A stretch of DNA of 23,397 bases from Capsulimonadales bacterium (GTDB taxonomy: Bacteria; Armatimonadota; Armatimonadia; Armatimonadales; Armatimonadaceae): assembly GCA_033762295.1 (NCBI GenBank), contig JANRLW010000050.1:1-23397 (forward strand), given 5' to 3'. Below, piece by piece: positions 1,020 through 23,397 of the stretch (position 1 is the first letter of the stretch; each line of letters starts with the position of its first letter). A program made the position numbers and the translations under genes. The notes under the pieces were generated by a model. It did no database searches and had not been told where the DNA came from. It saw nothing but the letters and a program-made list of their open reading frames with translations.

Positions 1020-1023
1020 GCGA

Positions 1024-1713: not shown

Positions 1714-1779
1714 CGGTTTCGACCCGTGAGACAGTGTTCGACAGGGTTGGATGGGCGGGATTCGGGGTAAAAAGTACGG

Positions 1780-4686: not shown

Positions 4687-4703
4687 GGGGGCGGAACGCC
4701 CCC
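4687..4703 (+). terminator. GC-rich hairpin directly after the stop codon; possible terminator or mRNA-stabilising stem
   Basis: GGGGGCG-GAA-CGCCCCC, a perfect 7-bp stem; no U-tract follows, so intrinsic termination is doubtful. Confidence 0.35.
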
Positions 4704-4755
4704 CGGACAACGGTGTATGACAATCGGTAAGGGACGCGTAAGGAACGGAATCTCC

Positions 4756-6275: not shown

Positions 6276-6303
6276 TAAAGATTCGCGATACTCCGGTCGA
6301 TAA
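6276..6303 (+). promoter_or_regulatory. Candidate sigma-28 (FliA/SigD/WhiG)-type promoter for the PEP-CTERM/exosortase cluster
   Basis: TAAA(6276-6279)-N16-GTCGATAA(6296-6303) versus consensus TAAA-N15/16-GCCGATAA; one mismatch. Confidence 0.5.
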
Positions 6304-6416: not shown

Positions 6417-7319
6417 ATGAGAAATCCGAACCTACGAGATTGCACCCGTCGGTCGCGGGAGAGAAGCGGGAAAAGTGCGAATCGCGTTTTTCTCTCGCTG
6501 GTCGCCGCTTCCGTTTTCGGGACAGCCGTCCTCGCACAGACCGATGCGCCGATTCAGTCCTCCGCCCGTCCGTTCGGTCTGAACATTCAGGACAAGGTGA
6601 AGGTCGGCGGCAGCGATACCAAATCGGCGACGTTTCAGAGGAACTACCTATCGAAAATGCGCGAACTGGCGATGCTCAACCTGCCGGAATCGAAACCCCT
6701 CTCCGACGAAACGATCGGTTTGCGGAAGATCGACCCGAACAAGCTGAAGATTTTCAACGATTCCGATGTTCGCGTCTACTTCCTGGGGGAAGGCGCCGGC
6801 TACCGAAACTCCTTCGGATTCAACACGAACGGCGCGGGGGTGACCGGCGGCGACCCGAAACTGCTGTTCCCCGATGCCTCCACGACGGTCGCGAACGGAC
6901 CGAACAATGGTAGCGGGGGCTCGCGGTCGTCGTCCGCGCCGCTGTTGCCCGGTGACTTCGTCGATCTGGGACGGATTACCGGAGGAACGCAGCTCAACTT
7001 CTTCAACATATCGAACGGCGCGACCGGCGGAAACACGGTCTTCTCCACCCAGCATAGCGCCAATCAGGACGGAATGGTCCACGCGGTCGCCTATGCGCTT
7101 CCCGACAGTCCTTACCTGCTGATCGGCTTCGAGGATCTCTGGGGAGGGGGCGATAAGGATTATAACGATGTCCTCTTCACGATCGATATCGGCCTCGCGA
7201 ACGTCGCCAAACTCTCCGGCCCCGAACCGGCCACTCCGTTGATCCTGGGATTGTTCCTGACCATGACCGGGCTGGTCTACCGGCGGCAACGCCGGGCGGA
7301 AGCGTCTGTCCCGAAGTAA
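6417..7319 (+). CDS. DUF4114-domain surface protein with C-terminal PEP-CTERM sorting signal
   Basis: Signal peptide ending 'AVLA-Q'; 'VYFLGEGAGYRNSFGF'; DUF4114-like 'IGFEDLWGGGDKDYNDVLF'; C-terminus 'SGPEP' (PEP at 7221-7229) followed by a hydrophobic helix and the basic cluster 'RRQRR'. Confidence 0.88.
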   Translation: MRNPNLRDCTRRSRERSGKSANRVFLSLVAASVFGTAVLAQTDAPIQSSARPFGLNIQDKVKVGGSDTKSATFQRNYLSKMRELAMLNLPESKPLSDETIGLRKIDPNKLKIFNDSDVRVYFLGEGAGYRNSFGFNTNGAGVTGGDPKLLFPDASTTVANGPNNGSGGSRSSSAPLLPGDFVDLGRITGGTQLNFFNISNGATGGNTVFSTQHSANQDGMVHAVAYALPDSPYLLIGFEDLWGGGDKDYNDVLFTIDIGLANVAKLSGPEPATPLILGLFLTMTGLVYRRQRRAEASVPK

Positions 7320-7364
7320 AGCGGAGTGAAGTCGTCCGGACGTGTCGGGTGAACAGGGGAGATC

Positions 7365-9368
7365 ATGGGACGAAAAACGGGCAATCGAACACCGATCGTG
7401 CTTTTGGTGACGGCGGTTGTGCTGGTGGGGACGATCGCGGGAGTCGCTTTGTGGCGTTCCCGGACCATCGCCCGGCAGTCGGAAAACCGGCGCGTTCGCA
7501 CCGAACGGCTGATTCGGGAGGGCAAGGCGCCCGAAGCGCTGGAAGTCATCGCCATCGAGGAGCGGGTAACCGGGCCGCAGGACGGAAACGATCCGCAGAC
7601 GGTCGTCTGGCGGCGGCTCAAGCGGCAAGCCCTGACGAAAATCGGCAACGCGGCCGGACTCGAGGAGCTGTTTGACAAGTATCCGGCGGAGGTGGAAAAC
7701 GACGAACCGGCCTCTCTCCTTCTTTACCGCGCGAAGTCGGTCGCTCGCCGGAAGGAGGATCGCAAGATCGCCGTCCGACTGGCGAAGCGATGGGAGCCAT
7801 CCACCGACCATCCCGAGTGGTGGCTCAGCGCACGCGCCGACTCCTTGCTGGCGTGTGGCGAGCGTGCTGCCGCCGAAAAACTGCTTCGTTCTCGTTCCTT
7901 TCCCGGTGTCGCTGACACGAACCGTCTCCTGCGGCTGGCGATGCTGTTCGCGCCACGGGACCCGCAGCGCGCGTGGAGCCACGTACAACGGGCCTACTCC
8001 CTTGCTCCACGGAATCCCGAGGTCCGCAGCTTCCGTGCTCGTCTGCTGGAAACGGCCGGTCAGGTTCCGCAGGCCCGGGTCGAGTATGCGGCGGCCTGGC
8101 TGGCCGCCCCGCAGAACGCGATGTGGTGCGATCAACTGGCCGAGTTCTATCGCCGCCATGGTGATCTCAACGCGGCGGTCCGCACCTGGACCGACGGACT
8201 GAGCAGCGGCGCGGATGCGGATTTCCTCCGGGTCAAAGCGCTCTTCTGGAGCCGGGTCGCCGAACCGATCGCCTTTCCGGCGATGACCGGTGACCGGATG
8301 ACCCGGATTCCGCCCGGACCGCTTCAGCCGTTCGCACGGTACCTGCAAAACGTCCCGACCGATGCCTTCTGGGACCCCGATCGGTTCGATGAACTCACGT
8401 CGGCGCGACGCCTGGAACGGGACCGCCAGGAAGCGTTCTGGCTGACGGTGCTTCACGCGTTGAGTGAGGGCAAAGAGAAACGCGCCCACTCGCTGATTGC
8501 GCACAACCCCTTTCGCGACGAAACCTGGAACCCGTTCCTGGAACGCGCCCTCGACCTGATTCTCACCTACCGGTTGACCGGAAAGCTGGAATCGAACGCC
8601 GGGACAGCGCCACGGGGGAACGCCGCCGAACAACATACCTTTCTCGGCGAACTGGAACGGTATGCAAGCGGGGCGGAAGTCCCTGAAACGGTCGCCGTTT
8701 TCCTGAGGAGCGACCATGCGATCCCCGGAGCGCTCCTGGCTTCCGGCTGGACCGAGGCCGCTATCCGGTGTCACCGCGCCACGAACGCCACCGGCCTGCC
8801 GGGCTGGTATGTCTACGGAATGACACAGGCGTTACGGCATAATCGCGGGAGCGCCGAGGCGCTTTCCTTCGCCATGACGCGACGCGGCCCGGACCCGGCC
8901 CTGGAAATTCTGGTCGCCGAACTACGGCTGGCCCTCGGCGAGTCGGAAAGCGCCATGGCGCTGCTGGCACGACATGCCGCCATGCCGGGGGACGTCGGAT
9001 ACCGTGCTGCCTGGATGCTCGCCAGCGAGTATCTGGACCGGAACCAACCGGAGGAAGCGGTGCGCATCACCGACGCCCAGCCGGAACTGGCGAAGAGTGA
9101 CACGGGCGTCGCTCTCAAGGCGCGTGCCGCGCTGGCACGCGGACAACTGGAAAACGCCCGGTCGCTTTACCGGTCCATTCTTGAAAAATCCGGCGAGGCC
9201 AAGATGTTCGTGGCAAAAATGGCGTATGACCGGGGAGATTACGCCGAGGCCGAACGTCTCACCGAGGAACTGTTGCGTCTGTACCCGGACACGCTCGCGT
9301 TTCGGGCCAATCTGCGGCGGATTCGAGAACGGGCGCAGGAAGCCACGCGCCGGGGAGGGCAGGGATGA
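7365..9368 (+). CDS. Membrane-anchored tetratricopeptide-repeat (TPR)-like protein
   Basis: Single N-terminal TM; Ala/Leu-rich helical repeats such as 'RAYSLAPRNPEV', 'AWLAAPQN', 'LARGQLENARSLY' and 'YDRGDYAEAERLTEELLRLYPD'; SD GGGAG upstream. Confidence 0.75.
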   Translation: MGRKTGNRTPIVLLVTAVVLVGTIAGVALWRSRTIARQSENRRVRTERLIREGKAPEALEVIAIEERVTGPQDGNDPQTVVWRRLKRQALTKIGNAAGLEELFDKYPAEVENDEPASLLLYRAKSVARRKEDRKIAVRLAKRWEPSTDHPEWWLSARADSLLACGERAAAEKLLRSRSFPGVADTNRLLRLAMLFAPRDPQRAWSHVQRAYSLAPRNPEVRSFRARLLETAGQVPQARVEYAAAWLAAPQNAMWCDQLAEFYRRHGDLNAAVRTWTDGLSSGADADFLRVKALFWSRVAEPIAFPAMTGDRMTRIPPGPLQPFARYLQNVPTDAFWDPDRFDELTSARRLERDRQEAFWLTVLHALSEGKEKRAHSLIAHNPFRDETWNPFLERALDLILTYRLTGKLESNAGTAPRGNAAEQHTFLGELERYASGAEVPETVAVFLRSDHAIPGALLASGWTEAAIRCHRATNATGLPGWYVYGMTQALRHNRGSAEALSFAMTRRGPDPALEILVAELRLALGESESAMALLARHAAMPGDVGYRAAWMLASEYLDRNQPEEAVRITDAQPELAKSDTGVALKARAALARGQLENARSLYRSILEKSGEAKMFVAKMAYDRGDYAEAERLTEELLRLYPDTLAFRANLRRIRERAQEATRRGGQG

Positions 9369-10207
9369 CCCCGACCGTTCAACGCCCTTCCGCCATTGGC
9401 CTGATCGGTCTCGTCGTGATGGCCGTTTACCTCTGGTGGCGTGACCTTGCCTGGATGGCGCACATGGCGGACGCTCTGCCGATCCTCGCGGGATTTCCAC
9501 TCTTTTTCTTTCTCCGCGGGCCGGCGAAACCGTCGGTCGAAAGTCGCGTCGCTTCGGCAGAAGGACGTGAATTTCTCACCTCGCCCGCCATTGGCCTGCT
9601 TTCGCTCGGAATCGGACTCGTTCTCGGGGCGAATTTCCCGCTGGCGCTGGGATGGACCCTGCTCTTTTTCGCCTGGCTCGCCCCGAGCCTGGATGCGGAT
9701 TCGAGGCGACGTACCGCCCGGCTCCTGCCTCTGTTGCTGCTCTCCTTCCCCTGGCTGCTTCAGGATGGCGAACGGATCGGCTGGTGGTTCCGATTATCCG
9801 GAGCCTGGGCGACCGAGCATCTTTTTTCCTTGCTCGGATTTGCCGTCGAACGGCAGGGGACGCTCGTCCTGATTCAGGGGATCGGAATCGGAGTCGATGC
9901 GCCGTGCGCCGGTTTGAACGTTCTCCAGTCGCTGCTGCTGGCCGGGACGGCGCTGGCGTTCGTCTCGCCGGGCGGTAAGCGGTGGCGAACCGTTCCGCTG
10001 ATGGTCGTCCTCGTCGGAATGGCCTGGCTGGCGAACGTGCTACGCCTGCTGTTGCTCTGCTTTGCCGCCCTGACCTACGGTATCGAGTTCGCGCGTGGCG
10101 CGTTCCACACGTGGGGAGGGTTGTTCGCTCTGATGCTCATGTTCGGACTGTGCGCCGCGCTTTTCTCCCGGGAGGGGCCGCGCCGACGCGAAAGTGAGGC
10201 CCGGTAA
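9365..10207 (+). CDS. Exosortase/archaeosortase-family transpeptidase (EpsH-like)
   Basis: Multi-TM protein with the catalytic triad in canonical contexts: 'VDAPCAGL' (Cys, 9905), 'ANVLR' (Arg, 10043) and 'FHTWGG' (His, 10106); two genes downstream of a PEP-CTERM protein. Confidence 0.92.
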   Translation: MTPTVQRPSAIGLIGLVVMAVYLWWRDLAWMAHMADALPILAGFPLFFFLRGPAKPSVESRVASAEGREFLTSPAIGLLSLGIGLVLGANFPLALGWTLLFFAWLAPSLDADSRRRTARLLPLLLLSFPWLLQDGERIGWWFRLSGAWATEHLFSLLGFAVERQGTLVLIQGIGIGVDAPCAGLNVLQSLLLAGTALAFVSPGGKRWRTVPLMVVLVGMAWLANVLRLLLLCFAALTYGIEFARGAFHTWGGLFALMLMFGLCAALFSREGPRRRESEAR

Positions 10208-10692
10208 TGGGGTTTCCTCCGGCATTACGGCTGGTTCTCCTGGCGTTCGCCGTTTATCAGTCGCGCGACCTGGCCCTCGCCTGGCGGGACGCCCCTTACG
10301 AGCGGTTTTCCCTGATCGCGTTCCTCCTCTGGGTGGTCCCTGTCATCGTGGCCCGGTGGCGAAAGGAACGGAGCGAGGCATCGGACTCCGTTGTCGATGG
10401 AATTGCCGTGGTCTGCCTGGTGGCGAAATCGGTCACCGGACTGAATCTACTCGCCTATATCGGCCTGGCGTTGATGCTTTCCCGGTTCGGAAGGCCGACC
10501 GGACGGGGAGCGTTGTTCGTATGGAGCCTTGGCGCGTTCCTCTGGATGCCGGTCACCGGATGGGGACTGTCGACCGTCGACCCGGCGCTTCTGGGTTGGA
10601 TGCGGGTGACACTGGTCGCTCTGATATCGCTCGGCTCCTGCACGGCGTTACGATCGGAATCCATGCCGCTGGCGGAAGGGAGGTCGGCCTGA
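10207..10692 (+). CDS. Small multi-pass membrane protein resembling the non-catalytic N-terminal half of an exosortase
   Basis: About 5-6 hydrophobic segments; start overlaps the exosortase stop (TAATG) and stop overlaps the EpsI start (TGATG); segment-wise resemblance to the neighbouring exosortase N-half. Confidence 0.7.
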   Translation: MGFPPALRLVLLAFAVYQSRDLALAWRDAPYERFSLIAFLLWVVPVIVARWRKERSEASDSVVDGIAVVCLVAKSVTGLNLLAYIGLALMLSRFGRPTGRGALFVWSLGAFLWMPVTGWGLSTVDPALLGWMRVTLVALISLGSCTALRSESMPLAEGRSA

Positions 10693-11303
10693 TGTGGTCG
10701 TTTTCGAAACCGGCGGTGACCTGGACGATGGTTCTGGTCGGGATTTTCGCCGCCATTCTCTGGGATGTCCTTCCCTCCGGAAACGGACCGTCGCGTTTCC
10801 GTGACCTGCCCCTTCACGGAACGAGATTCCGGATGCGAAACGTTCCGCTGACCGAGACCGAGAAGGCGACGTTCGGCGGCGCGGAAGTGGTCAAACGGCT
10901 GATTCGATGCGAAGGACAGCCGGCGATCCTGTTGACGGTGGTGGATGGGGGAAAAAACAATCATGCCATCCATGATCCGACCTACTGTCTGCGTGGGGCG
11001 GGCTGGACGATTGTCGCCGAAAATCCGCTCCCGATACCCGGCGGAACGGCACGGTGGGTCCGGTTGAAGCAGCGTCTCGCGGGTGCGGATCGCGAAATCG
11101 AGGCCGTCTACTGGTTTTCGAACGGCAGACAATGCTACGACTCTTCGCTTCGTTCCTGGGCGGATGGCGTTCTGGCACGGGTGTCCCGGCACCGGGTCGG
11201 TCCCTCCCCGGCGTTGGTATTGATGCATTCTCTCGGCCAGGAAGAGCAATATCCGGACTGGGAGGCGATATTGCGTAGCCTGCCGGCTTTGTCCCGACGA
11301 TGA
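10692..11303 (+). CDS. epsI: Exosortase-associated EpsI-family periplasmic protein
   Basis: True start is probably ATG 10692 (SD GGGAGG, TGATG overlap), inside the track ORF 10194..11303. N-terminal TM, signature 'IHDPTYCLRGAGW' (H.P..C..G.GW) and 'VYWF'. Confidence 0.85.
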   Translation: MWSFSKPAVTWTMVLVGIFAAILWDVLPSGNGPSRFRDLPLHGTRFRMRNVPLTETEKATFGGAEVVKRLIRCEGQPAILLTVVDGGKNNHAIHDPTYCLRGAGWTIVAENPLPIPGGTARWVRLKQRLAGADREIEAVYWFSNGRQCYDSSLRSWADGVLARVSRHRVGPSPALVLMHSLGQEEQYPDWEAILRSLPALSRR

Positions 11304-11331
11304 TCGTCGATAAACAAATCCCGGACGAAGG

Positions 11332-11359
11332 TGAAAAAAACCGGTTGAACTGCCGAAAA
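11332..11359 (+). promoter_or_regulatory. Second candidate sigma-28-type promoter, internal, ahead of the STAS/glycan genes
   Basis: TGAA(11332-11335)-N16-GCCGAAAA(11352-11359) in a 91-bp A-rich gap; same spacing as the motif at 6276-6303. Confidence 0.4.
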
Positions 11360-11394
11360 TTACGGGGAAAAGACACCTTCGGAAAGCGGAACGA

Positions 11395-11745
11395 ATGGAA
11401 CTCAGGCACGAAAATAGAGTGGGGCAGGCAGGGGAGGTCACCGTCGTCACGGTTCATGGCGAACGACTGGACCTGGTAACGGTCAATAAGTTCAAAAAGC
11501 AGTGGGAGCCTTTGATCGCTCGCTGTGATCGGCTGGTTTTGGATCTGGCCGAGGTGCAGATGGTCGATTCGAGCGGTTTCGGGGCGATTCTCGGGGGGCT
11601 GCGGCAGCTTTCGGATCGCGGCGGGGATATCAAACTCTGCAACGTTCAAAAGCGGGTTCGAATCCTGCTCGAAATGGTCCGGATGCATAAAATTATCGGA
11701 ATTCATAACAATGTCGAGGAGGCGATCGCCGCCTTCGGCGCGTGA
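11395..11745 (+). CDS. STAS-domain anti-sigma factor antagonist (SpoIIAA/RsbV-like)
   Basis: 116 aa; 'GERLD', 'LVLDLAEVQMVDSSGFGAIL' with the conserved phospho-acceptor Ser, 'GGDIKLCN' and 'VEEAI'. Confidence 0.92.
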   Translation: MELRHENRVGQAGEVTVVTVHGERLDLVTVNKFKKQWEPLIARCDRLVLDLAEVQMVDSSGFGAILGGLRQLSDRGGDIKLCNVQKRVRILLEMVRMHKIIGIHNNVEEAIAAFGA

Positions 11746-11762
11746 TCGACCGGAGTTCAGGC

Positions 11763-12941
11763 ATGTCGTCCCGTGAATTGGCGCTGTGCGTCTTTATTGA
11801 TGCGTTCGGTTGGCGGATCGCGGAGCGACATCCGCAGTTTCTGGACGGCATCCTGAAAGTCCGCCGCCCTCTGGGGACGATCTTCGGCTACTCATGTACC
11901 TGTGACCCGACGATTCTGACCGGGAAACTCCCCCGTGAACACGGCCATTTCTCCTTCTTCCGATATGCGCCCGCCGAGTCCCCCTTCCGTCGGCCGGAAG
12001 TTCGCCTCCTGGGCCTTCTGCCGAAGTCGATCACGCGTCGGGGACGCGTCCGGAACGCCCTGAGCCGATGGCTGGGCAGCCGACTTCGATACACCGGGTA
12101 TTTCCAAATTTACAACGTTCCCTTCGAACGGTTGCCGCTTTTCGACTATACGGAAAAGCGCGACCTGTACCTGCACGACGGAATCAACGGTGGATGTCCG
12201 ACCATTTTCGACGACCTGCGAGCCGCCCGTGTACCGTTCTACTGTTCGGATTGGCGACGACCGGAACCGGAGAACCTGCGCACCCTGGAGGCGGCGATTA
12301 CCGGTTCCGATCCGCCACGGTTCGCCTACCTGTACCTGGCGGCGATGGATGCCGTGCTCCATGCCGAAGGGACGGACAGCCGGAAGGTCACGGAAAAAAT
12401 CGCGGGATATGATCGCGCCTTGCGCCGGGTACTGGAAATAGCCTCCGAACGGTACGATCAGGTCCGCCTGTTCGTCTTTTCCGATCACGGAATGACGAAT
12501 GTCGTCGAAACCTGCGATCTCATGGCGCGAATAGACAGGACGGGACTTCGGTTCGGTGAGGATTATGCCGCGGTCTACGATTCCACCATGGCGCGGTTCT
12601 GGTTCCTGCGACCGAACGCCCGGGAACGCATCACCGCGACTCTGTGCGAGGAGAGAAAGGGCACGATCCTTTCCGGGACGACCCTGCATTCCTGGGGCTG
12701 TGACTTCCCGGACCACCGCTACGGGGAACTCTTCTTCCTGATGAAGCCCGGTGTCCTGCTCTGTCCCTCGTTCATGGGCGAAACCCGACTTGCGGGGATG
12801 CATGGCTTCGATCCCACCGATCCGGATTCCCTGGCCTTTTTCGGGGCTGATACGACCCTGCCCGAAGGGGACGCGCCGGCGCGACTCGATGATCTCCATA
12901 GTTTGATGCGGAAAGAGGCGGGCCTTGCCGGATGTGCGTGA
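11763..12941 (+). CDS. Alkaline phosphatase superfamily (nucleotide pyrophosphatase/phosphodiesterase-like) protein, no signal peptide
   Basis: Metal-ligand motifs 'FIDAFG', 'DAVLH', 'FSDHGM' and 'GMHGF'; nucleophile region 'GYSCTCDPTILTG..P.EHG'. ATG 11763 has a GGAG SD; the alternative start is GTG 11742, overlapping the STAS stop. Confidence 0.85.
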   Translation: MSSRELALCVFIDAFGWRIAERHPQFLDGILKVRRPLGTIFGYSCTCDPTILTGKLPREHGHFSFFRYAPAESPFRRPEVRLLGLLPKSITRRGRVRNALSRWLGSRLRYTGYFQIYNVPFERLPLFDYTEKRDLYLHDGINGGCPTIFDDLRAARVPFYCSDWRRPEPENLRTLEAAITGSDPPRFAYLYLAAMDAVLHAEGTDSRKVTEKIAGYDRALRRVLEIASERYDQVRLFVFSDHGMTNVVETCDLMARIDRTGLRFGEDYAAVYDSTMARFWFLRPNARERITATLCEERKGTILSGTTLHSWGCDFPDHRYGELFFLMKPGVLLCPSFMGETRLAGMHGFDPTDPDSLAFFGADTTLPEGDAPARLDDLHSLMRKEAGLAGCA

Positions 12942-12968
12942 CAGGGACGGCGCGGGGAGCGAACGGCG

Positions 12969-15829: not shown

Positions 15830-15839
15830 GAGAGTTTTT

Positions 15840-18047
15840 GTGGCAAGATTGATTCCGGAGACCGACGACGACGAGTTCGACGGGACGCCTGAGGCGGACC
15901 CGCAGACGCCGTCGCGTCCCGCCGCGCCGCTGCCCGACCCCCGGCTGTTGCTTTTCGGGGTGCTCAAACGGTGGTACGTGGTCGTGTTTTTCGGCGTGCT
16001 TTCCTATTATGGCGGCCTGTCCGTCGGCGGTCAGATCGGAACCAAGAAGAGTTTCGAAGCGGAGACGATCGTTCGGTATCAGGCGACCGGCGAAAACAGC
16101 CGGTATGTCGATCAGAAAACGACGATTCTCACCCTTAAGGACACGGTCAAGATCCGGGAGAACATCGAGGAGGTGCGCGATCGCCTCGGAATCAAGGATG
16201 CCATCGGGCAGATCGGCAAGGCGCTCGATGTCCGGGTCCAGAAGAATACGACCCTGCTGATCATCGGCGCGAAGTGGAAGACCGCCCGCGGCGCGGCGGA
16301 GATGGTCAATACGCTCCGGGACCTCTTTCTGGAGAAGTACGAGAAACGCCGAAAGGACGATCTCCGTCGCCAGATCGCCGACCTGGCCTCACGGCTCGCC
16401 GCCGTCCGCGCCGACCTGCGCAAGCGGGATCGCGACCTGCAGCGTTTCACCACATCGAACCGGATCGTCGATATCGAGAAACAGTCCCGCGCCCTGCTCG
16501 AGGAGTTCAATAACTACGGAGTCCTTCTGGAACAGGCGCAGGCGGAGAAGAAGACGGTCGATCAGCAGGCCCGGAAACTGGATCAGGCGATCAACGAACT
16601 GAAGGCGCGCGTCGCCCGCGAAAGCCGGAATATGGCGCAGCTGGAGAACCTCGCCGATGTCAATACCCGCATCGAGCGCATTCGCGACACGATCCGCGAG
16701 GACAAGGAGTTGCGTGCGAATATCGCCGAACTCGCTCTCCGGAAGCAGGAGATGGAGCGGATGAAGGGCCTTCTGGACCGGGGATTCGTCTCCGAGATGG
16801 CCTATCAGCGGGTGGTTACCGAGTACGAAACCCAGCGCATTCGGACGGAGGACAACGAGGAGACCCGGAAGCTGCGCGAGGAACGGGAGAAACTGCAGCA
16901 GCAGATCATTCCGCGGGATGGAGGGACCGCGCCGTCCGCGCCGATCCTGACCGAGATGCTGAAGCGCACGTTCGAAATCCAGCTCGACCAGATCGCGGTG
17001 AACCGTAAGGTCGCCTCACTGACCGAAGCGCGAGCACGGGTGAAGGTCCAGCTGGATCGAGTACCGATCCTGCAGCAGCAGTTCGACGCCCTTCAGCGCA
17101 ACATCAACTCGCGGGAGGCCGAACGCAAGGAACTGGAGACCAGCCTCGCCGGACTTCAGCGCGACCTGGATTCCCGCATGGACGACTTTACGATCGTTTC
17201 CGTCGCCGAGGTGGACAAGGAGGAGGCGAGCGCGGCGAGCAAAACGCAGATGGTCGGCTACGTACTCTGTCTGGTCGGAACCCTTCTGGGGATCGCGGTC
17301 GCCGGTGGCTGGGAATTCCTGGATGTGACGATTCGAACCCCCGGTCAGGTTGCCGCCAAACTGCCGACGGTGCCGCTGCTCGGAGCCTTTCCGAGGCGTC
17401 GGAAACGCCGCGCCCCGCTGGTAACGCCGGACGAGACCGATTTTTCGGAGCGACTTTCGATCACGGCGCGAAAGCTTCGGCAGGCGATGCCCCGGTCCGG
17501 CGGATGTGTTCTGGTCGTGTCCGCCAACCCGGGCGAAGGGGTCGGGACGATTTCCCGTAACCTCGCCGCCGCGCTTTCACGGCAGGATGAACGGGTGGCG
17601 TTGATCGATCTTCGACCGAACGCGTCGGAGGACGTCGCACGCTGGGTCACGGGCGGACGTCCGAATGTCGGTCTCAGCGAGTACCTGGAAGGGGCGGCGG
17701 TCACGGAGGAGGCGCTGGTCACCACCGCGATGCCGGGACTGTCGGTGATCGTCCGCGACGTGTCGACGCTCAGCCCGGACCGACTGGGGTCCCAGAGGAT
17801 GGCGTCCCTGATCGACGGACTCTCCCGGCGGCATGATGTCGCCTTGCTGACATCCGCTCCGCTTCTGAAGAGCAACGAAACGCAATTACTGATGGGTAAG
17901 GTGGACGGGGTTCTGCTGGTGGTTCAGGCCGGCAAGACGTCGGTCGCCCAGATCGAGAAGGCGCGTCAGAAGCTGGAGGAGATGCGGGCGCCGGTGATCG
18001 GAATCGTTTTGAACAAGGCGCGCTGGCCCTACATTCACTGGGAGTAA
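15840..18047 (+). CDS. Wzc/GumC-like polysaccharide co-polymerase with degenerate BY-kinase domain
   Basis: Two TMs flanking a long coiled-coil periplasmic region, 'EFLDVTIRTP', 'PLLGAFP', then a P-loop-like domain ('VVSANPGEG', 'GLSEYL', 'DGVLLVV', 'GIVLN'). Confidence 0.88.
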   Translation: MARLIPETDDDEFDGTPEADPQTPSRPAAPLPDPRLLLFGVLKRWYVVVFFGVLSYYGGLSVGGQIGTKKSFEAETIVRYQATGENSRYVDQKTTILTLKDTVKIRENIEEVRDRLGIKDAIGQIGKALDVRVQKNTTLLIIGAKWKTARGAAEMVNTLRDLFLEKYEKRRKDDLRRQIADLASRLAAVRADLRKRDRDLQRFTTSNRIVDIEKQSRALLEEFNNYGVLLEQAQAEKKTVDQQARKLDQAINELKARVARESRNMAQLENLADVNTRIERIRDTIREDKELRANIAELALRKQEMERMKGLLDRGFVSEMAYQRVVTEYETQRIRTEDNEETRKLREEREKLQQQIIPRDGGTAPSAPILTEMLKRTFEIQLDQIAVNRKVASLTEARARVKVQLDRVPILQQQFDALQRNINSREAERKELETSLAGLQRDLDSRMDDFTIVSVAEVDKEEASAASKTQMVGYVLCLVGTLLGIAVAGGWEFLDVTIRTPGQVAAKLPTVPLLGAFPRRRKRRAPLVTPDETDFSERLSITARKLRQAMPRSGGCVLVVSANPGEGVGTISRNLAAALSRQDERVALIDLRPNASEDVARWVTGGRPNVGLSEYLEGAAVTEEALVTTAMPGLSVIVRDVSTLSPDRLGSQRMASLIDGLSRRHDVALLTSAPLLKSNETQLLMGKVDGVLLVVQAGKTSVAQIEKARQKLEEMRAPVIGIVLNKARWPYIHWE

Positions 18048-18050
18048 CAC

Positions 18051-19286
18051 ATGGTTATCGCACAGGTGCCCCGTCGCTTCGTACGCGAGGAATGGGGCGG
18101 CACGGAAACGGTCATTCTGGAAACGAGCAAACGGATTCTTGCCGCCGGTCATTCGACCGCGATCGTCTGCCCGAACGCCCTGGCCGATCGGGACGGCGAG
18201 GAGATCGGCGGGGTACCGGTCCGTCGCTTCTCCTATTTTTACCCGTACCTCGGCCTGTCTTCGGAGGCGAAGGTCCTGATGGATAAGAAGGGGGGGAACC
18301 TCTTTTCGTTTCCGCTGATGGGCGAGCTGCTCCGCTGGCCCGAACTGGACCTGATCCACCTGCATACATTGAAGCGCACGGGGGGGATCGGGCGGTACGT
18401 CGCCCGACGACGGGGCATCCCTTACGTCGTTTCCCTGCATGGCGGCGTTTTCGACGTACCTGTTGCCGAGGCGGCGACGTTTACCGAACCGACTCGTGGC
18501 GCGTTCGAATGGGGCAAGGCGCTTGGCTGGTGGGTCGGCTCGAACCGGGTGCTGGCGGATGCCGCCTGCATCCTGTGCGTCGGCGATAGCGAACGGAAAG
18601 CGACCGGGGAGCGGTATCCGGGGAACCGGGTGGAATGGCTTCCGAACGGAGTCGATGTGCGGCGTTTCGCCTGCGGGGACGGTCCCGCGTTCCGCGCCCG
18701 GTTCGGCATACCCGCAGACGCATTCGTCGTCCTGACGGTCGGACGGATCGACGGACAGAAGAACCAGTTGTTGCCGGTTCGCGCTTTGAAAGAACTGCGT
18801 CGGATTCAGCCGAGGACGCACCTGCTCCTGATCGGACCGGTGACCAACCCCGCCTACCGACAGCAACTCGAGCAGGAGATTCGGGAACGGGAACTGGGGG
18901 CGCAGGTCACGTTGATCCCCGGCCTGGACAACGCGGGAAACGATCTGACCGACGCCTACCATGCGGCCGATCTATTTCTGCTGCCGTCGATGCATGAGCC
19001 ATTCGGTATCGTCATTCTGGAAGCCTGGGCGGCAGGGCTTCCCGTTCTTGCCAGTCATGTCGGCGGAATCCCGTCCTTTGTCGAAAACGGAACCGATGGC
19101 ATACTTTTTGCACCGTCCGAGGAAAGAGAATTCACGGAATCCTACGCCGGGTTGGCGAAGAACGCCGATCTCCGTCGGCGGATCGCCGAAGCGGGCCGAA
19201 AAAAGGCCACGGAACATTTTGATTGGGATCGCATCACCTCGCGCCTTCTCAATATCTACGCTGAGGTTATTCGTCCCACATCCTGA
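18051..19286 (+). CDS. Glycosyltransferase family 4 (GT-B fold)
   Basis: 'WGGTE', 'LPNGVD', 'VGRIDGQKNQ' and the E-x7-E motif 'EPFGIVILEAWAAGLPV'. Confidence 0.93.
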   Translation: MVIAQVPRRFVREEWGGTETVILETSKRILAAGHSTAIVCPNALADRDGEEIGGVPVRRFSYFYPYLGLSSEAKVLMDKKGGNLFSFPLMGELLRWPELDLIHLHTLKRTGGIGRYVARRRGIPYVVSLHGGVFDVPVAEAATFTEPTRGAFEWGKALGWWVGSNRVLADAACILCVGDSERKATGERYPGNRVEWLPNGVDVRRFACGDGPAFRARFGIPADAFVVLTVGRIDGQKNQLLPVRALKELRRIQPRTHLLLIGPVTNPAYRQQLEQEIRERELGAQVTLIPGLDNAGNDLTDAYHAADLFLLPSMHEPFGIVILEAWAAGLPVLASHVGGIPSFVENGTDGILFAPSEEREFTESYAGLAKNADLRRRIAEAGRKKATEHFDWDRITSRLLNIYAEVIRPTS

Positions 19287-19358
19287 CGTAATTTTTCAGG
19301 TTGTCCGGGTCGTTTAATCTTGAATTAATGGTTACGAACTATATAGAAATCCGTTGTC

Positions 19359-20579
19359 ATGAAAATACTCTGGCTGAACGATTTCGCAAACTTCACGGGA
19401 GGCTGCGAACGCTACATTTTTGATACCGCGACCCTTCTTGCCGCGCGGGGCGTCGAATCGTCCATTCTTTACGATGTGACCGATACCACGTCTCCGGCGT
19501 TCACGAAGGCGTTTGCCGGCGGAGCGTTTCCTCGCGTCGATCTCGCACGTCAGATCCGCGAACTCGCGCCCGATGTGATCTACGTTCACCGTTTGAACGA
19601 TTCCCGGGCGCTGGAAACCCTGGCGAATGGCGCGGTTCCCTCCGTACGTTTTTTCCACGACCACAAACTTTTCTGTCCGCGTGAGCATAAATATACCGTT
19701 CTGACAAAGGAGACCTGCACGAGGACCGTCGGATTCGGGTGTTTCACCTGTCTCGGCGTGGTGAACAAGGTGCCTCGTGAACAGGGTTTGATCCGCCTGA
19801 CGCTTCCCGGAACGCTGCGTCAGGAACAACGGCGGAACGCGGAAACCTTTACGGCGATCGTCGTCGGCTCCCAATATATGGCGGACCATGTCACGGCTCA
19901 CGGCTTCGATCGGGATCGGGTGCATTCCCTGCCGCTGTTCGTCCGACAGCCCGAGGAGTCGATAGCGCTGCGTTCGGTGACGCGGGAAAACGATCTGTTG
20001 CTGTTCGTCGGGCAGTTGACCACGGGGAAGGCGGTCGATATCCTGCTGCGCTCCCTGAAGGCGACCACGACCCCCGCCCGCCTTTTGATCCACGGAACCG
20101 GAAAATTCGAAGCGGAGTATCGCAACCTGACGTCCGAACTCGGTCTCAACGAGCGGGTCACCTTCGGCGGAAAGGCGGACGGCGACACTCTGGCGGCCGC
20201 GTACCGCCGCGCGGCGGCGGTTGTTTTCCCATCGCGCACGCCGGAAACGTTCGGTCTTGTCGGACCGGAGGCGATGAGCCATGGAACGCCGGTCATCGCC
20301 ACCCGGGTCGGAGGGATGACCGAATGGCTCGAACAGGACGTCACCGGACTGGCGGTTCCGCCGAACGACGTTGCCGCGCTGACCGCCGCGATCGATCGGC
20401 TGATGACCGACGACGAACTGCGTCGGCGTCTCGGACAGCAGGGCCGACAGCGATATTTCGAGCGTTTCACCCCGGAACGGCACGTCGAACGGCTTCTGGA
20501 GGTGTTCCATCGATTGACCGGACGATCGATCGGAGCGACCGCGCGAACGGGTCGACCGGAGACAAGGAGAGCCGCATGA
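19359..20579 (+). CDS. Glycosyltransferase family 4 with four-cysteine insert
   Basis: 'MKILWL', 'GGCE', 'FVGQL...KAV' and 'ETFGLVGPEAMSHGTPV'; insert C-x13-C-x7-C-x2-C following 'FHDH'. Confidence 0.92.
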   Translation: MKILWLNDFANFTGGCERYIFDTATLLAARGVESSILYDVTDTTSPAFTKAFAGGAFPRVDLARQIRELAPDVIYVHRLNDSRALETLANGAVPSVRFFHDHKLFCPREHKYTVLTKETCTRTVGFGCFTCLGVVNKVPREQGLIRLTLPGTLRQEQRRNAETFTAIVVGSQYMADHVTAHGFDRDRVHSLPLFVRQPEESIALRSVTRENDLLLFVGQLTTGKAVDILLRSLKATTTPARLLIHGTGKFEAEYRNLTSELGLNERVTFGGKADGDTLAAAYRRAAAVVFPSRTPETFGLVGPEAMSHGTPVIATRVGGMTEWLEQDVTGLAVPPNDVAALTAAIDRLMTDDELRRRLGQQGRQRYFERFTPERHVERLLEVFHRLTGRSIGATARTGRPETRRAA

Positions 20580-21859
20580 GCGAGCGAACGATTGCGCCCG
20601 AGGACTGGGGACGCTTTACCTTCAGCGGTGGTGACGCGGTGGAGGCGCGCCTGCGGGACATCGTTTCCGGGACGGTCCGTACCCTGAAGGATCGGCTTCG
20701 CCCGGAGAGCGTTCGCGCACTGGTTTTGATCGGTGGGTACGGACGCGGCGAAGGCGGGGTGGAAGTCCGCCCGGACGGTACGGAGTATCCGCACAACAAT
20801 CTGGATTTCCTCCTGATCGGGCGGGGCGGGATCGGGGAGGTCGCGGCGCTGAAGGCGGAACTCGATCCGATCCTCGAGGAACTGTCGCTGCGCCTCGATA
20901 TCGGTCTGGACCTGGGTATTACCACGGAGGCGCGCTTGAACGCGTCCCCCTGCCTCATCATGTGGTACGACATGCGCTACGGCCACAAAACGCTCTGGGG
21001 CGACGCCTCCTACGTGCCGTCCCTCACCCGATTCGAGGCGGAGCGGATTCCGACTTCGGAAGCGAGAAACCTTCTGGTGAACCGCGGCACCCTTCTGGTG
21101 ATTAATGACGCCCTGATCGAACGGGGGATCCGTTCGGAAAAGGAGCGTCGGACCGTCGTCCGGCATGCCGTGAAGGCGATCATCGGTTACGGAGACGCGT
21201 TGCTTTATTTTCGGGGGGAGTACCACTGGAGCTACGCGGAGAAGCGGAAACGTATGGCCGGACGCACCGATGTCTCCGCCGAGTTTCGCGCGCTGTACGA
21301 CGTGGCGATGGGGTTCCGATTCCGTCCGGATTACGGTCATTGGAGTATCGGCGATTCGGAAGCGGGGGCGGAGGAACTGCGTCAGGTTCTGGGGCCTATT
21401 CATCTGGAGTGTGAGCGGCTTCGTCTTCGCCGGACGATTAACTGGGACGATTACCTGATGGCAGCCTGCGCCGGGGAGTGGACGACGCACCCGACCCCCT
21501 CGCTGCGCGCCGCCGTCCGCCGTGTCATCAACCTTCTGCGGGTGGAACTTCCGCCGGAGGTGCTGTACGCGTTGCCGGACCTGACCGCTCGCTGGGGCGC
21601 CCGGTCGGCGGGACCGCGCGGCGTATTGCCGCTTCTTTTCCCCGTAATCGCCTATCACCTTCAGGAGGAAACCACCGTTTCCGCCGCGCGAGCGTTCCTG
21701 AACGCGGCGGATACCTCGCTTCCCGCCCTGCGCCGCGCCTATCTTCGCGCCTGGGGCCAGCATGGTGACATCAACTTCGGTTCGGTACTGAGAAAACTGG
21801 GGCTTTCGGTGGAGGAGTCGGTCATGGACGCCCCGGTCCGTACCCGGGAGGCCGCATGA
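20576..21859 (+). CDS. Hypothetical protein with DNA polymerase beta-like nucleotidyltransferase N-terminal motif and helical C-terminal region
   Basis: Start probably ATG 20576 (SD AGGAG, ATGA overlap). 'ALVLIGGYGRGEG' (hG[GS] motif), 'NNLDFLLI' (DxD position) and a third acidic strand 'IGLDLG'. Confidence 0.65.
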   Translation: MSERTIAPEDWGRFTFSGGDAVEARLRDIVSGTVRTLKDRLRPESVRALVLIGGYGRGEGGVEVRPDGTEYPHNNLDFLLIGRGGIGEVAALKAELDPILEELSLRLDIGLDLGITTEARLNASPCLIMWYDMRYGHKTLWGDASYVPSLTRFEAERIPTSEARNLLVNRGTLLVINDALIERGIRSEKERRTVVRHAVKAIIGYGDALLYFRGEYHWSYAEKRKRMAGRTDVSAEFRALYDVAMGFRFRPDYGHWSIGDSEAGAEELRQVLGPIHLECERLRLRRTINWDDYLMAACAGEWTTHPTPSLRAAVRRVINLLRVELPPEVLYALPDLTARWGARSAGPRGVLPLLFPVIAYHLQEETTVSAARAFLNAADTSLPALRRAYLRAWGQHGDINFGSVLRKLGLSVEESVMDAPVRTREAA

Positions 21860-22719
21860 AACGACCGCCGATTTGTCTGACCGGTGACCTGCACCATAGT
21901 AGCCTGGGCACCGGAAACCAGAAGCATTGCGATATTACCGAACTGCAGACGGGGCAGCTTTATCTGGACCTTCTGACGTCCGCCGGGGTCAAGGCCACCT
22001 TCTTCATCTCCGGAAAGTGCTTCGCTGAGGAATGGCAGGACACGCAACCGATCTGCGCCAGTCCGCTCGTCGAGGTCGGCGGGCACAATTATGACTGCTT
22101 TGAGGCGCAGCTTTTTCATCGCCTGAGCAAGAAACTCCTCGGCAGTTACAATGGCCCCCGGTGGTATCAGGAGCGGGATGCGCGACGGACCATCGCTATC
22201 ATCGAGGCAAGGACCGGTCGTCGTACCAGAGTCTGGCGGAACCATATGTACATGCACGGACCGTACACCGAAAGCGTTCTGGCGAAATGCGGCTGCCAGG
22301 TCTGCTCCGACGGGGTGAAGCGCGCGGCGATGGGACCGGAATGGCACGACGCCGGCATTTTCAACTTCCCGATCAATGTCATTCCCGACCACGAGCACCT
22401 CTTTCATGCCGAACGAACCAGGGAATGGGTGGAGCAGTGGGTGCGGCGGTATGACTGGTCCGACGATTTCGGGCCGCAATCCTATGAGGTCGAAGAGTGG
22501 GCGCAGATCGTTCTGGAAAACCTGCAGGAGAATGAAGCGCGCGGGGCGATCAGCAACCTCATCATCCATCCGATCACGATGTATCTTTGCGACCGGTTCA
22601 ACGCGTTCGAACGGATTCTCGACTTTATCGCCGCCCGTGAGACGATCTGGGTGAGCGAAGCGGTCGAACGTGTTGCGGAAGAACGGCGCGAAGTGGTGAC
22701 CGTAGGAGGGCCGAAATGA
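21856..22719 (+). CDS. Polysaccharide deacetylase-like protein (NodB/CE4 superfamily), atypical motifs
   Basis: 'LTGD', 'GVKATFFISG', 'EVGGH', 'WR' and 'LIIHP' occur in NodB order; no signal peptide. Confidence 0.78.
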   Translation: MKRPPICLTGDLHHSSLGTGNQKHCDITELQTGQLYLDLLTSAGVKATFFISGKCFAEEWQDTQPICASPLVEVGGHNYDCFEAQLFHRLSKKLLGSYNGPRWYQERDARRTIAIIEARTGRRTRVWRNHMYMHGPYTESVLAKCGCQVCSDGVKRAAMGPEWHDAGIFNFPINVIPDHEHLFHAERTREWVEQWVRRYDWSDDFGPQSYEVEEWAQIVLENLQENEARGAISNLIIHPITMYLCDRFNAFERILDFIAARETIWVSEAVERVAEERREVVTVGGPK

Positions 22720-23397
22720 CGACAACGCCGCGTGCCACCGTGCTGATGCGCTCCAAGAACAGCGACTGGGTGATCGGGCAGGCGTTGGCCGGGCTCTTTG
22801 CCCAGAACTATACCGATTTCGAGTTGCTGGTCGTCGATTCGGGTTCCACCGACCGGACCCTGGAGTATGTGGCGGCCTATCCCTGCCGGCTGGAACGGAT
22901 CAAGCCGGAAAACTACTATCCCGGTGCGGTTCTGAACCAGGCAATCGAGGGAACGAACACCGAACTCATCGTCTTCCTGAATTCGGACTGCGTCCCGCTG
23001 TGCGCCGAGACGCTCGGACGGCTGGTCGCCGCCTTCGATGATCCGTCGGTGATGGCGGCGTTCGGGCGGCAGGTGCCGAGGCCCGAAGCGGACGGGTGGG
23101 TGCGCCGCGATTATGCGCAGGCGTTCCCGGAGACCGGAGACGCACCGCCCTGGATCACCTTTTCGCTGCCGATTGCGGCGATTCGTCGATCCGCCTGGGA
23201 AAAGCGGAAGTTTTACACCGATGCCTGGGGGTCGGAGGATACGGAATGGGGGAACTGGGCGCGGCAGCAGCCCGGATGGAAGGTCGCGTACGTCCCGGAA
23301 GCGATCACCATGCACTCCCACAACTACACGCTCCGTCAGCTGTACGGTCGTCGGTTCATCGAAGGGGAAGCGGACGCCTTTATCTACCGGGATCGCG
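22716..23397 (+). CDS. Glycosyltransferase family 2, rhamnosyltransferase-like, 3'-truncated by window edge
   Basis: Absent from the ORF track because there is no stop in the window. Hand translation from ATG 22716 gives MTTTPRATVLMRSKN...LVVDSGSTD...VFLNSD...AFGRQVPRP...GSED...HSHNY. 'GRQ.P', 'ED' and 'HSHNY' match RfbN-like rhamnosyltransferases. Confidence 0.88.
   Translation, partial: MTTTPRATVLMRSKNSDWVIGQALAGLFAQNYTDFELLVVDSGSTDRTLEYVAAYPCRLERIKPENYYPGAVLNQAIEGTNTELIVFLNSDCVPLCAETLGRLVAAFDDPSVMAAFGRQVPRPEADGWVRRDYAQAFPETGDAPPWITFSLPIAAIRRSAWEKRKFYTDAWGSEDTEWGNWARQQPGWKVAYVPEAITMHSHNYTLRQLYGRRFIEGEADAFIYRDR

Follow-up and report, generated by a model that had tools for sequence, protein, structure and literature searches.

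An exosortase cassette outside the named subtypes, joined to a predicted lectin and a polysaccharide pathway in an Armatimonadaceae genome

Introduction

What does an exosortase do when it is encoded between one PEP-CTERM protein and a glycan pathway? The question is raised by contig JANRLW010000050.1 of assembly GCA_033762295.1, from a Capsulimonadales bacterium (Armatimonadota, family Armatimonadaceae). The whole contig, 23,397 nucleotides long, was analysed and is referred to as the window; it is contig C50 of a genome (G000) of 5.16 Mb that is 94.5% complete. A threonine dehydrogenase encoded upstream of the locus has most of its named close relatives in Armatimonadaceae or other Armatimonadota, and the host thus very probably belongs there. 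From position 6417 to the end of the window we find 15 open reading frames (ORFs) on the + strand, all without internal stops, and the genes overlap by 1 or 4 nt at 8 of the 14 junctions, as described in the initial annotation, which had counted at least 15 co-directional genes, many of them with overlapping stop and start codons. The families matched by these ORFs are DUF4114, TPR, Exosortase_EpsH, DUF3485/EpsI, STAS, Phosphodiest, Wzy_C, Wzx-like, Wzc-like, GT4 (twice), polysaccharide deacetylase and GT2. Neither PrsK nor PrsR is among them, also as described.

That annotation proposed a self-contained module which builds a glycosylated surface layer or a glycoprotein coat, possibly with an unnamed type of exosortase. 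The locus indeed looks like an exopolysaccharide (EPS)-linked PEP-CTERM/EpsH-like system, whose enzyme is a member of the exosortase family and yet falls outside all named subtypes. We favour another function, which we consider fairly probable: the locus joins an exosortase cassette to a Wzx/Wzy pathway, and the enzyme likely clips a PEP-CTERM protein predicted to be a LecB-like lectin, which would attach to the polysaccharide once exported and keep it on the cell. The exosortase cassette is paired with a predicted lectin and a polysaccharide pathway, and therefore the locus likely builds both a slime layer and its lectin tether. The parts and the overall logic of the locus are of known kinds; the variant is new.

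An exosortase of an unnamed subtype

The exosortase (9365..10207, + strand, 280 aa) keeps its triad C181/R227/H248. It matches the general family models well above their cut-offs (PF09721, 75.8 versus 25.7 bits; TIGR04178, 45.3 versus 23 bits). On the contrary, none of the models of named subtypes in NCBIfam 20.0 (XrtA-Z, CrtA-C, ArtC/E) reaches its cut-off: the best is XrtV, with 46.6 bits versus a cut-off of 313, and XrtA gives 34.3 versus 208. A protein search with the window exosortase returned 78 matches. In the first 71, which were aligned, the triad and N224 are invariant (71/71), and the family is tight (37–54% identity). Judged by these scores, the exosortase belongs to an unnamed subtype, below every named NCBIfam cut-off, and the possibility raised by the initial annotation is borne out.

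It could be argued that the enzyme is merely a divergent member of a named subtype, such as XrtV, XrtA or XrtW. All 71 members do match the models of these three subtypes weakly, and the only outside rows of the quick tree described below are three other exosortases of the same genome, with no reference sequences of named subtypes. However, the best E-value of any of the 71 to a named subtype is 4.6e-17, the window protein stays at 46.6 bits where 313 are required, and the tight family has conserved partners of its own. We regard this explanation as extremely improbable.

Scanning species-representative genomes yielded 100 confirmed relatives, from which 80 loci were retained (two from one isolate). 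The quick tree was built from 79 scanned loci and the window. All its 80 rows sit on a single long stem (support 93), apart from the three other exosortases of the genome. The rows come from Verrucomicrobiota (37), Chlamydiota (18), Chlorobiota (7), Thermodesulfobacteriota (4), one Gemmatimonadota and one Lentisphaerota, together with unlabelled rows. The window row has no well-supported sister, so that the tree does not resolve the donor of the cassette. Cultured carriers of the subtype are Prosthecochloris vibrioformis DSM 260, Chlorobium phaeovibrioides and Desulfoluna spp. We note that the labels of two loci, L060 and L041, are doubtful and probably reflect mistakes in binning or labelling: a "cyanobacterial" row, probably misbinned, can hardly be told from rows of Limisphaerales, and a row labelled "Verrucomicrobia" sits among the chlamydiae.

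A sequence search of solved structures found no relative of the exosortase. In the literature surveyed (titles and the openings of abstracts on exosortases, PEP-CTERM, DUF4114, chlamydial PEP-CTERM and PEP-CTERM lectins), the cassette is not described; supplementary tables of subtypes could bear on its novelty.

A cassette of four genes

The exosortase gene is flanked by three genes which accompany it nearly everywhere. Among loci with enough flank for the partner to be seen, the TPR gene is present in 72/75, the half-exosortase gene in 66/71 and the epsI gene in 66/70. Where all four genes lie on one strand (62 loci), the order TPR–exosortase–half-exosortase–EpsI is always kept, within 4.5 kb at most. 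These four genes are a fixed cassette across Verrucomicrobia, environmental Chlamydiae, Chlorobi and Desulfobacterota.

The TPR protein (7365..9368, + strand, 667 aa, TPR Pfams) scores 50.8 bits with TIGR02917, the model of PrsT, whose cut-off is 312.2. A hydrophobic N-terminal membrane segment is found in 82 of 84 homologues, and a lipobox-like motif in five of the 84, which makes it, by sequence, a membrane-anchored protein and not a PrsT lipoprotein. Many of the chlamydial loci carry a further TPR paralogue ahead of the cassette.

The next gene (10207..10692, + strand) encodes a membrane protein of 161 aa which we call the half-exosortase, as it resembles, weakly, the non-catalytic N-terminal part of exosortases. 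The resemblance appears in several comparisons: PF09721 matches 7 of 63 members of the family (best E 0.00026), hhalign against the exosortase family gives P 23% and E 9e-4, and the Atlas gives a TM of 0.62 to an exosortase-family cluster. The family retains Trp, Pro and Gly residues and has no conserved Cys, Arg or His. In 3/78 homologues the half-exosortase is joined to the C-terminus of the exosortase, and we infer that it acts as a subunit of the enzyme. That it is conserved, and sometimes fused, suggests that exosortases can need a paralogous subunit. A frameshift, which would make the half-exosortase and EpsI one broken gene, is ruled out because dozens of genomes encode them as distinct ORFs. 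The EpsI-family protein itself (10692..11303, + strand, 203 aa), a putative periplasmic partner, is over the cut-off of PF11984, and under those of TIGR02914 and of the V- and B-type models.

A close known system is the PEP-CTERM/EpsH (XrtA) one, which includes PrsK, PrsR and PrsT (Haft et al. 2006, PMC1569441). As there, the exosortase has Cys, Arg and His, EpsI is adjacent, a TPR protein is the partner, the site lies among EPS genes and, in relatives of the window locus, sigma-54 sites precede the cargo genes. The differences are the scores, far below the XrtA and PrsT cut-offs as given above, the TPR protein that is membrane-anchored instead of a lipoprotein, the additional half-exosortase gene, the single conserved cargo family encoded in the operon, the absence of PrsK/PrsR from the locus and the sigma-28-like site in the host family.

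The cargo is a predicted lectin

The first gene of the operon (6417..7319, + strand, PF13448) encodes the DUF4114 protein, 300 aa, hereafter the cargo. Signal peptide, PEP motif, transmembrane helix and basic cluster can all be read in its sequence. With TIGR02595 (cut-off 16) it scores 13.5 bits as a protein and 15–16.2 in the genome scan; the PEP residues are kept in its family (P in 45/48 homologues, E in 47/48, P in 47/48).

Sequence searches of solved structures with the cargo found no relative, and its assignment rests on fold searches with an AlphaFold model (pLDDT 86.9). VIA-align superimposes residues 105–261 of the model on LecB (1gzt) with Z 7.4, over 111 of 114 residues and with an rmsd of 3.2; thrombocorticin follows at Z 6.2, and the next, unrelated rows at 4.1. 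Foldseek places BclA, LecB and RS-IIL at ranks 1–9 (E 0.024–0.05). In the cargo family, N131, E239, D240, D248 and D251 are present in 48/48 sequences, D246 and N250 in 46/48. By spacing, and taken in sequence order, these seven residues correspond to Asn21, Glu95, Asp96, Asp99, Asp101, Asn103 and Asp104 of LecB, which, together with Gly114 of the neighbouring chain, are reported as its calcium and sugar ligands (PMC8752737). The cargo is thus predicted to have the fold of a LecB-type, two-calcium lectin, with calcium ligands kept by spacing.

The predicted fold and the acidic calcium-binding loop are shared with LecB/PA-IIL, BclA and RS-IIL. In contrast to LecB, the cargo domain is larger, with insertions, and carries a Sec signal peptide and a PEP-CTERM tail; the identity is 16%. 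Related lectin-type domains are the DUF4114 domains of the Acanthamoeba mannose-binding protein, where DUF4114 is reported to be the mannose-binding domain and to bind mannose resin (PMC11934332), and of Myxococcus PilY1.1, for which a role as a calcium- and EPS-binding domain has been proposed. LecB is reported to bind the EPS Psl and to retain cells and EPS (PMC6522473), and the role that we propose for the cargo, holding EPS and cells together, would match this by analogy. The glycosylated surface layer or glycoprotein coat that the initial annotation built on the DUF4114 protein is not supported: with its predicted LecB fold and conserved calcium-ligand residues, the cargo looks like a lectin that would bind glycan, rather than like a passive subunit of a coat.

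Enzyme and cargo as a pair

The initial annotation also spoke of a single PEP-CTERM target. This is right for the locus but not for the genome, in which TIGR02595 gives 43 PEP-CTERM matches (42 over cut-off). The count of exosortases likewise revealed others: there are six PF09721 matches, five over cut-off, and two of them, on contigs C24 and C89, also satisfy the general model TIGR02602. Since the genome has other exosortases and about 42 PEP-CTERM tails, the locus comes in addition to housekeeping systems. Of the tails that fit a simple PEP pattern in this genome, 28/40 read APEP; the cargo reads GPEP. A distinctive sorting motif that would define the enzyme–cargo pair was not found in this genome, where the tails are barely separable (30.1 versus 27.7 bits with a profile of the family tails).

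The cargo gene adjoins the cassette in 36 of the 64 loci with enough flank. In a survey of 401 genomes of the host phylum, which scored six candidates per genome and in which related genomes do not count as independent, the enzyme and the cargo occur in the identical seven genomes. In four of these seven, all from one family (f15), they are far apart, and the nine visible cargo tails, from three genomes, all read GSEP, GAEP, GTEP or GYEP. Such a drift of the tail towards G-x-E-P in genomes where the two genes are unlinked is as expected with a dedicated enzyme. In two genomes (G146 and G155; loci L136 and L137) we also observed DUF4114 lectin genes in tandem arrays of three and five, well away from the cassette; their G-x-E-P tails are possibly a new variant of the sorting signal.

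Environmental chlamydiae are a different case. In the chlamydial genome G001, the cassette enzyme is the sole exosortase and nine PEP-CTERM tails are over cut-off. No match to the window cargo was found there, its PEP-CTERM proteins being of other kinds. In this genome and in G002 (loci L130–L135) there are several such proteins, among them three in tandem and one that is rich in Gly.

Dedicated one-enzyme/one-target sorting systems have been defined in a preprint (bioRxiv 10.1101/2023.06.07.544157). The named cases, XrtC/VPDSG and XrtD/VPLPA, are represented by NCBIfam models. The present pair is like them in that enzyme and target are neighbours in many loci (36/64), are sporadic and co-occur (7/7 in the host phylum). 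It is unlike them in that the tail is still PEP-like in most phyla, that no named model matches, and that chlamydiae have no exosortase but this one for several unrelated cargo proteins.

The glycan half of the locus

The window ends within the operon. Its final 77 nt overlap contig C16, on which the GT2 glycosyltransferase gene (22716..23397, the contig end, + strand; PF00535; 311 aa once completed) is completed. C16 adds four genes: a GT4 glycosyltransferase, a priming phosphoglycosyl transferase, a transferase–WecB fusion and a nucleotidyl-transferase-like/transferase fusion. The last of these is a hexapeptide/sugar-transferase fusion whose relatives match sugar-phosphate nucleotidyltransferases. 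The total is 19 genes; the gene that follows on C16 has the opposite orientation.

With C16, five of the six parts of a Wzx/Wzy pathway are present: priming transferase, glycosyltransferases, flippase, a putative polymerase and co-polymerase. In the window these are the Wzx-type flippase (14285..15829, + strand, 514 aa; PF13440 over cut-off, NF041503 under cut-off), the Wzy_C-family polymerase or ligase (12969..14288, + strand, 439 aa; PF04932), which has nine hydrophobic segments and is 56% identical to its orthologue in another genome of the same family (G031), the Wzc-like polysaccharide co-polymerase (15840..18047, + strand, 735 aa; TIGR01007, 85.9 versus a cut-off of 108.05), a GT4 glycosyltransferase (18051..19286, + strand, PF00534) and a second one (19359..20579, + strand, PF00534). 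The window also encodes a polysaccharide deacetylase-like protein (21856..22719, + strand, 287 aa; PF01522; 68% identical in G031). No OPX/Wza gene is found in the 19-gene locus, and there are five OPX matches elsewhere in the genome. For want of this gene the locus is not self-contained for export; the cassette being also apart from glycan genes and from the cargo in four of the seven genomes of the host phylum, "self-contained" in the initial annotation was too strong a word.

Are the glycan genes linked to the cassette elsewhere? Of the 36 loci whose flanks reach 9 kb or more on each side, 29 have some glycan gene, 20 a pathway-specific one, and seven none. In 183 background windows of this genome, the corresponding numbers are 30 and 12. 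In G031, 13 of the 15 window genes are kept in order, with 34–68% identity and a signalling block inserted before the STAS gene; in G359 a partial and rearranged set is kept. Outside the host family, the order of the glycan genes is reshuffled and inverted. The linkage claimed by the initial annotation was therefore found again in other genomes (20/36 versus 12/183), but the gene order was not, and glycan genes may be absent altogether. In sum, no named exosortase subfamily came over its cut-off, and the sorting and glycan halves are linked elsewhere.

It may be that this association is a loose one, that is, that the cassette is a general exosortase unit hitch-hiking in EPS islands, and that the lectin serves as an adhesin to external surfaces or to hosts, unrelated to the neighbouring polymer. 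The reshuffled and inverted neighbours, the seven full-flank loci with no glycan gene, the unlinked cassette and cargo in family f15, and the chlamydial genome in which the cassette is the sole exosortase and the cargo proteins are different, are all consistent with this idea, as is the Acanthamoeba DUF4114 domain, which is reported to bind host cells (PMC11934332). On the other hand, a set of unusual glycan genes is found again and again next to the cassette in different phyla (among the 80 loci, STAS in 14, priming transferase in 12, NTP-transferase fusion in 14, NPP-like in 10, NTase-like in 8), and the gene order is kept in G031. This makes a loose association distinctly unlikely in our view.

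The co-polymerase was described as a pseudokinase by the initial annotation, and the motifs agree. At the positions that we take to be those of the BY-kinase motifs, its Walker A reads GEGVGT, with no Lys, neither the A' DxD nor the Walker B Asp is kept, and a Tyr cluster is lacking, unlike in three paralogues of the genome. In G031 the kinase domain is further decayed and shortened. The feature is not as non-canonical as had been suggested: pseudokinase co-polymerases are already described in EPS systems, namely EcpK/EpsV of Myxococcus xanthus (PMC12004946). There too, a BY-kinase-like domain without catalytic residues or Tyr cluster serves a Wzx/Wzy pathway; the difference is that in the present protein pseudokinase and co-polymerase form a single chain.

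In one Verrucomicrobia locus (L062:1140-4388) and related ones we observed, near the cassette, a long ORF in which a chain-length determinant is fused to an OPX/Wza domain; these loci also carry a TIGR03015-like ATPase and a divergent sigma-54 activator. The genome of the window contains a separate EPS cluster (C62:59131-80445, L090), which encodes an OPX and a Wzc whose motifs are intact; two divergent exosortase-like matches lie in it, at the contig end.

The state of these proteins bears on a second alternative. Wzy_C (PF04932) includes ligases as well as polymerases. The protein of the locus could thus be an O-oligosaccharyltransferase that loads a Wzx-flipped oligosaccharide onto the DUF4114 protein, or onto its post-cleavage C-terminus, and gives a glycosylated surface layer. 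The scope of PF04932, the lack of an OPX in the locus and the dead kinase, which decays further in G031, would all fit, and PEP-CTERM proteins are often thought to be glycosylated. However, a full-length co-polymerase is retained, with two transmembrane segments and a long periplasmic region (50.7% identity in G031), and this conservation fits chain polymerisation. Besides, relatives of the locus have Wzc–Wza fusions and a TIGR03015-like ATPase, and the cargo keeps what is predicted, by spacing, to be a complete lectin-type calcium site. A glycoprotein coat is, we think, unlikely, and the favoured reading remains that of a lectin that tethers an exported polymer. The two are not mutually exclusive.

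A nucleotidyltransferase-like and phosphodiesterase-like pair

Two further genes of the glycan half form a pair. The first (11742..12941, + strand, PF01663) encodes an NPP-like enzyme of the alkaline-phosphatase superfamily, 399 aa, without signal or transmembrane segment. It matches ENPP5/6/7 (E about 3e-6), and residues D20, S51, D203, H207, D248, H249 and H354 are invariant in 11/11 sequences, so that all metal ligands and the candidate Ser nucleophile are kept.

The second (20576..21859, + strand, 427 aa) is a nucleotidyltransferase-like (NTase-like) protein which follows its partner, the second GT4. No Pfam or NCBIfam model matches it, and a sequence search of solved structures with its family, which counts 3098 representatives at E<=0.001, found none. 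Its assignment rests on a VIA-align fold search of the model (pLDDT 94.2), which points to the Pol-beta superfamily, with a helical domain: ANT(9)-type enzymes give Z 14.0 and 12.6, the former being 7uy4 (219 residues aligned, rmsd 3.1). D77 and D112 are kept (D/E in 140/140 and 138/140), and position 75, the first Asp of the DxD, is D in 73/140 and N in 67/140, the window protein being among the latter. Like ANT(9)/ANT(4') and MNT-HEPN, the protein would combine a Pol-beta NTase domain with a helical domain, and has a G-G-x-G-R motif and the acidic D77/D112. Unlike ANT(9)/ANT(4'), from which it differs by an identity of at most 14% (top rows), it is encoded among glycosyltransferases, is found fused to GT4, GT2 or NPP-like domains, and has Asn for Asp in the DxD.

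The initial annotation had noted an NTase-like and phosphodiesterase-like pair. It is a real, unnamed module, because the two genes co-occur in outside loci (all 8 loci with the NTase-like gene also have the NPP-like gene, and 8/10 the reverse) and are fused elsewhere, in an Atlas cluster of 103 proteins in which the NTase-like domain is joined to a PF01663 domain. Among the top 150 relatives, the NTase-like domain is fused to the orthologue of the second GT4 in six, and to that of the GT2 in one. We infer that the pair installs or trims a phosphodiester substituent. As a family of 3098 clusters that lacks a Pfam model, the NTase-like proteins point towards a glycan chemistry that has not been assigned.

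Regulation

Sigma-54 is the usual control of the cargo gene in the relatives. The survey covered the upstream regions of cargo genes in 36 relatives, seven more being dropped for short flanks. A sigma-54 site is present in 17/36 at no more than two mismatches (shuffles: mean 2.5, maximum 7) and in 10/36 at no more than one (shuffles: mean 0.3, maximum 2). A cluster of sigma-54 activators is encoded close to the cassette in 11 loci, and five loci, chlamydial ones, have rpoN itself adjacent to it. The genome of the window has rpoN and one full-length sigma-54 activator (C9), and no sigma-54 site precedes the window cargo gene, where the best candidate has five mismatches.

The window has instead a candidate sigma-28 (FliA/WhiG)-like promoter (6276..6303, + strand), made of two 8-nt boxes and a 12-nt spacer, which starts 141 nt before the lectin gene. 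It has 2/16 mismatches to the boxes that we take to be the sigma-28 consensus, presumably with an 11-nt spacer. It is one of the two best such sites in the 5.16 Mb (three shuffles gave 0–1), and in G031 a similar site, also with a 12-nt spacer, lies before the cargo orthologue. The genome encodes one FliA/WhiG over cut-off (C131:1134-1805, L092), and no flagellin match was found in it. In G359 the sigma factor is present and the site is absent. Of the sigma-28-like promoters proposed by the initial annotation, this one is supported, as a candidate; a second one, before the STAS gene, is ruled out, with 6/16 mismatches and no conservation in the syntenic G031. Nor is sigma-28 control a trait of the whole exosortase family, as 0/36 relatives have such a site at up to three mismatches. 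In the host family, the head of the operon has likely moved from sigma-54 to sigma-28 control.

A pattern derived from the two known sites (TAAARRTT-N12-GYCGATA) occurs eight times in 7 of 32 genomes of the host family, versus three control matches, a comparison that is circular for its two source sites. The six other sites lie 41–352 nt before ORFs of unrelated genes, so that no sigma-28 regulon can be defined, although a non-flagellar one is possible in the host family.

The STAS protein (11395..11745, + strand, 116 aa, DSSG serine motif) is indeed embedded in the operon, as previously annotated, and is a stand-alone ORF (PF01740 and TIGR00377 over cut-off). In chlamydial loci STAS is the last domain of a REC-SpoIIE-HATPase-STAS protein whose gene immediately precedes that of the priming transferase, Desulfoluna has a fusion of STAS with WecB, and in G031 a REC-PP2C-HATPase-type gene comes directly before STAS; two homologues of the latter are found in the genome of the window, on C12 and C132. 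STAS was also considered as an anti-anti-sigma factor for sigma-28; the fusions and neighbours of its relatives point instead to the priming transferase and WecB. STAS regulators are already described in EPS systems (Vibrio SypA/SypE, Anabaena All4160/HenR), and STAS is therefore not as non-canonical as was suggested. These have REC-PP2C-kinase partners and are thought to act on glycan synthesis, not on a sigma factor; in the present locus STAS is combined with an exosortase cassette, and the kinase and phosphatase candidates are on other contigs (C12 and C132).

The first of these regions (C12:8588-16121) encodes an ATPase-like protein, a REC protein, the REC-PP2C-HATPase protein and a STAS, and is homologous to the signalling block before STAS in G031. 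In the second (C132:13875-22259, L111), the genes of a histidine kinase and of the REC-PP2C-HATPase-type protein are accompanied by a paralogue of the window's second GT4 (45%) and one of the NTP-transferase fusion; this block is probably a regulatory part of the same system that has split off.

Proposed mechanism

In the mechanism that we propose, the cargo would be exported by Sec and then cleaved by the exosortase near the PEP motif, as family knowledge suggests; these steps rest on its signal peptide and PEP-transmembrane-basic tail, and on the triad of the enzyme, which are seen in the sequence. The half-exosortase and EpsI would be membrane subunits of the enzyme, and the TPR protein a periplasmic scaffold. 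The cargo domain, released or re-anchored, is predicted to bind sugars via two calcium ions. Meanwhile the priming transferase, WecB and the GT2 and GT4 enzymes would assemble a lipid-linked repeat, to which the NTase-like and NPP-like enzymes probably add, or from which they trim, a phosphodiester-linked substituent in the cytoplasm. Wzx would flip the repeat, Wzy would polymerise it with the phosphorylation-independent co-polymerase, and an OPX encoded elsewhere would export the polymer. The priming step may be tuned by phosphorylation of STAS by a REC-PP2C-HATPase protein encoded elsewhere.

Several observations weigh against this reading. The Wzy_C match is under cut-off (28.7 versus 31.7 bits) and the locus has no OPX. 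The Z of 7.4 between the cargo and LecB is within the range that VIA-align calls common, and Foldseek finds nothing for the cargo model at E<=0.001. The mapping of the ligands rests on spacing and aligned end points, not on a residue-level superposition, and the seventh ligand of LecB, the C-terminal Gly114 of the neighbouring chain, has no clear equivalent in the cargo. The family tail profile gives 30.1 bits to the tail of the window cargo and 27.7 to the next tail in the genome; the tails being barely distinct, the housekeeping exosortases on C24 or C89 could process the cargo. No cargo match was found in 17 of 28 outside genomes, which had been picked for lacking an adjacent cargo, and three of the four unlinked genomes (G146, G164 and G128, both sides read) have no pathway-specific glycan gene beside the cassette. 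Last, the support for sigma-28 comes from two genomes only, and the FliA/WhiG match of G031 contains a TAA stop. The cassette is well supported as a conserved unit; the lectin tether is a specific mechanism, and is only proposed.

A joint reading of all these elements goes further, and we offer it as tentative and rather doubtful. The cross-phylum exosortase subtype would be a multi-subunit machine (active enzyme, catalytically dead half-paralogue, EpsI and TPR scaffold) that displays a LecB-type lectin gripping the cell's own exopolysaccharide, a polymer whose phosphodiester decoration would come from an undescribed nucleotidyltransferase/NPP pair; the cassette would be the only PEP-CTERM sorting machinery of environmental chlamydiae, and would have been rewired from sigma-54 to an orphan sigma-28 in non-flagellated Armatimonadaceae.

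How PEP-CTERM proteins act with EPS in the making of flocs and biofilms is an unsettled question, in large part because in most systems the cargo proteins number dozens and their functions are not known. Unlike these typical systems, the present subtype has a single conserved cargo with a predicted activity, that of a calcium lectin. The tethering of EPS by a sorted protein is thus directly testable, since there is one conserved cargo, its calcium-lectin activity is predictable, its ligands can be changed by point mutations, and carriers are in culture.

Genes upstream of the locus

Positions 1–5814 of the window contain unrelated genes: a VKOR and DsbA-like pair, a histidine phosphatase, a GxGYxYP protein (968 aa) and a threonine 3-dehydrogenase.

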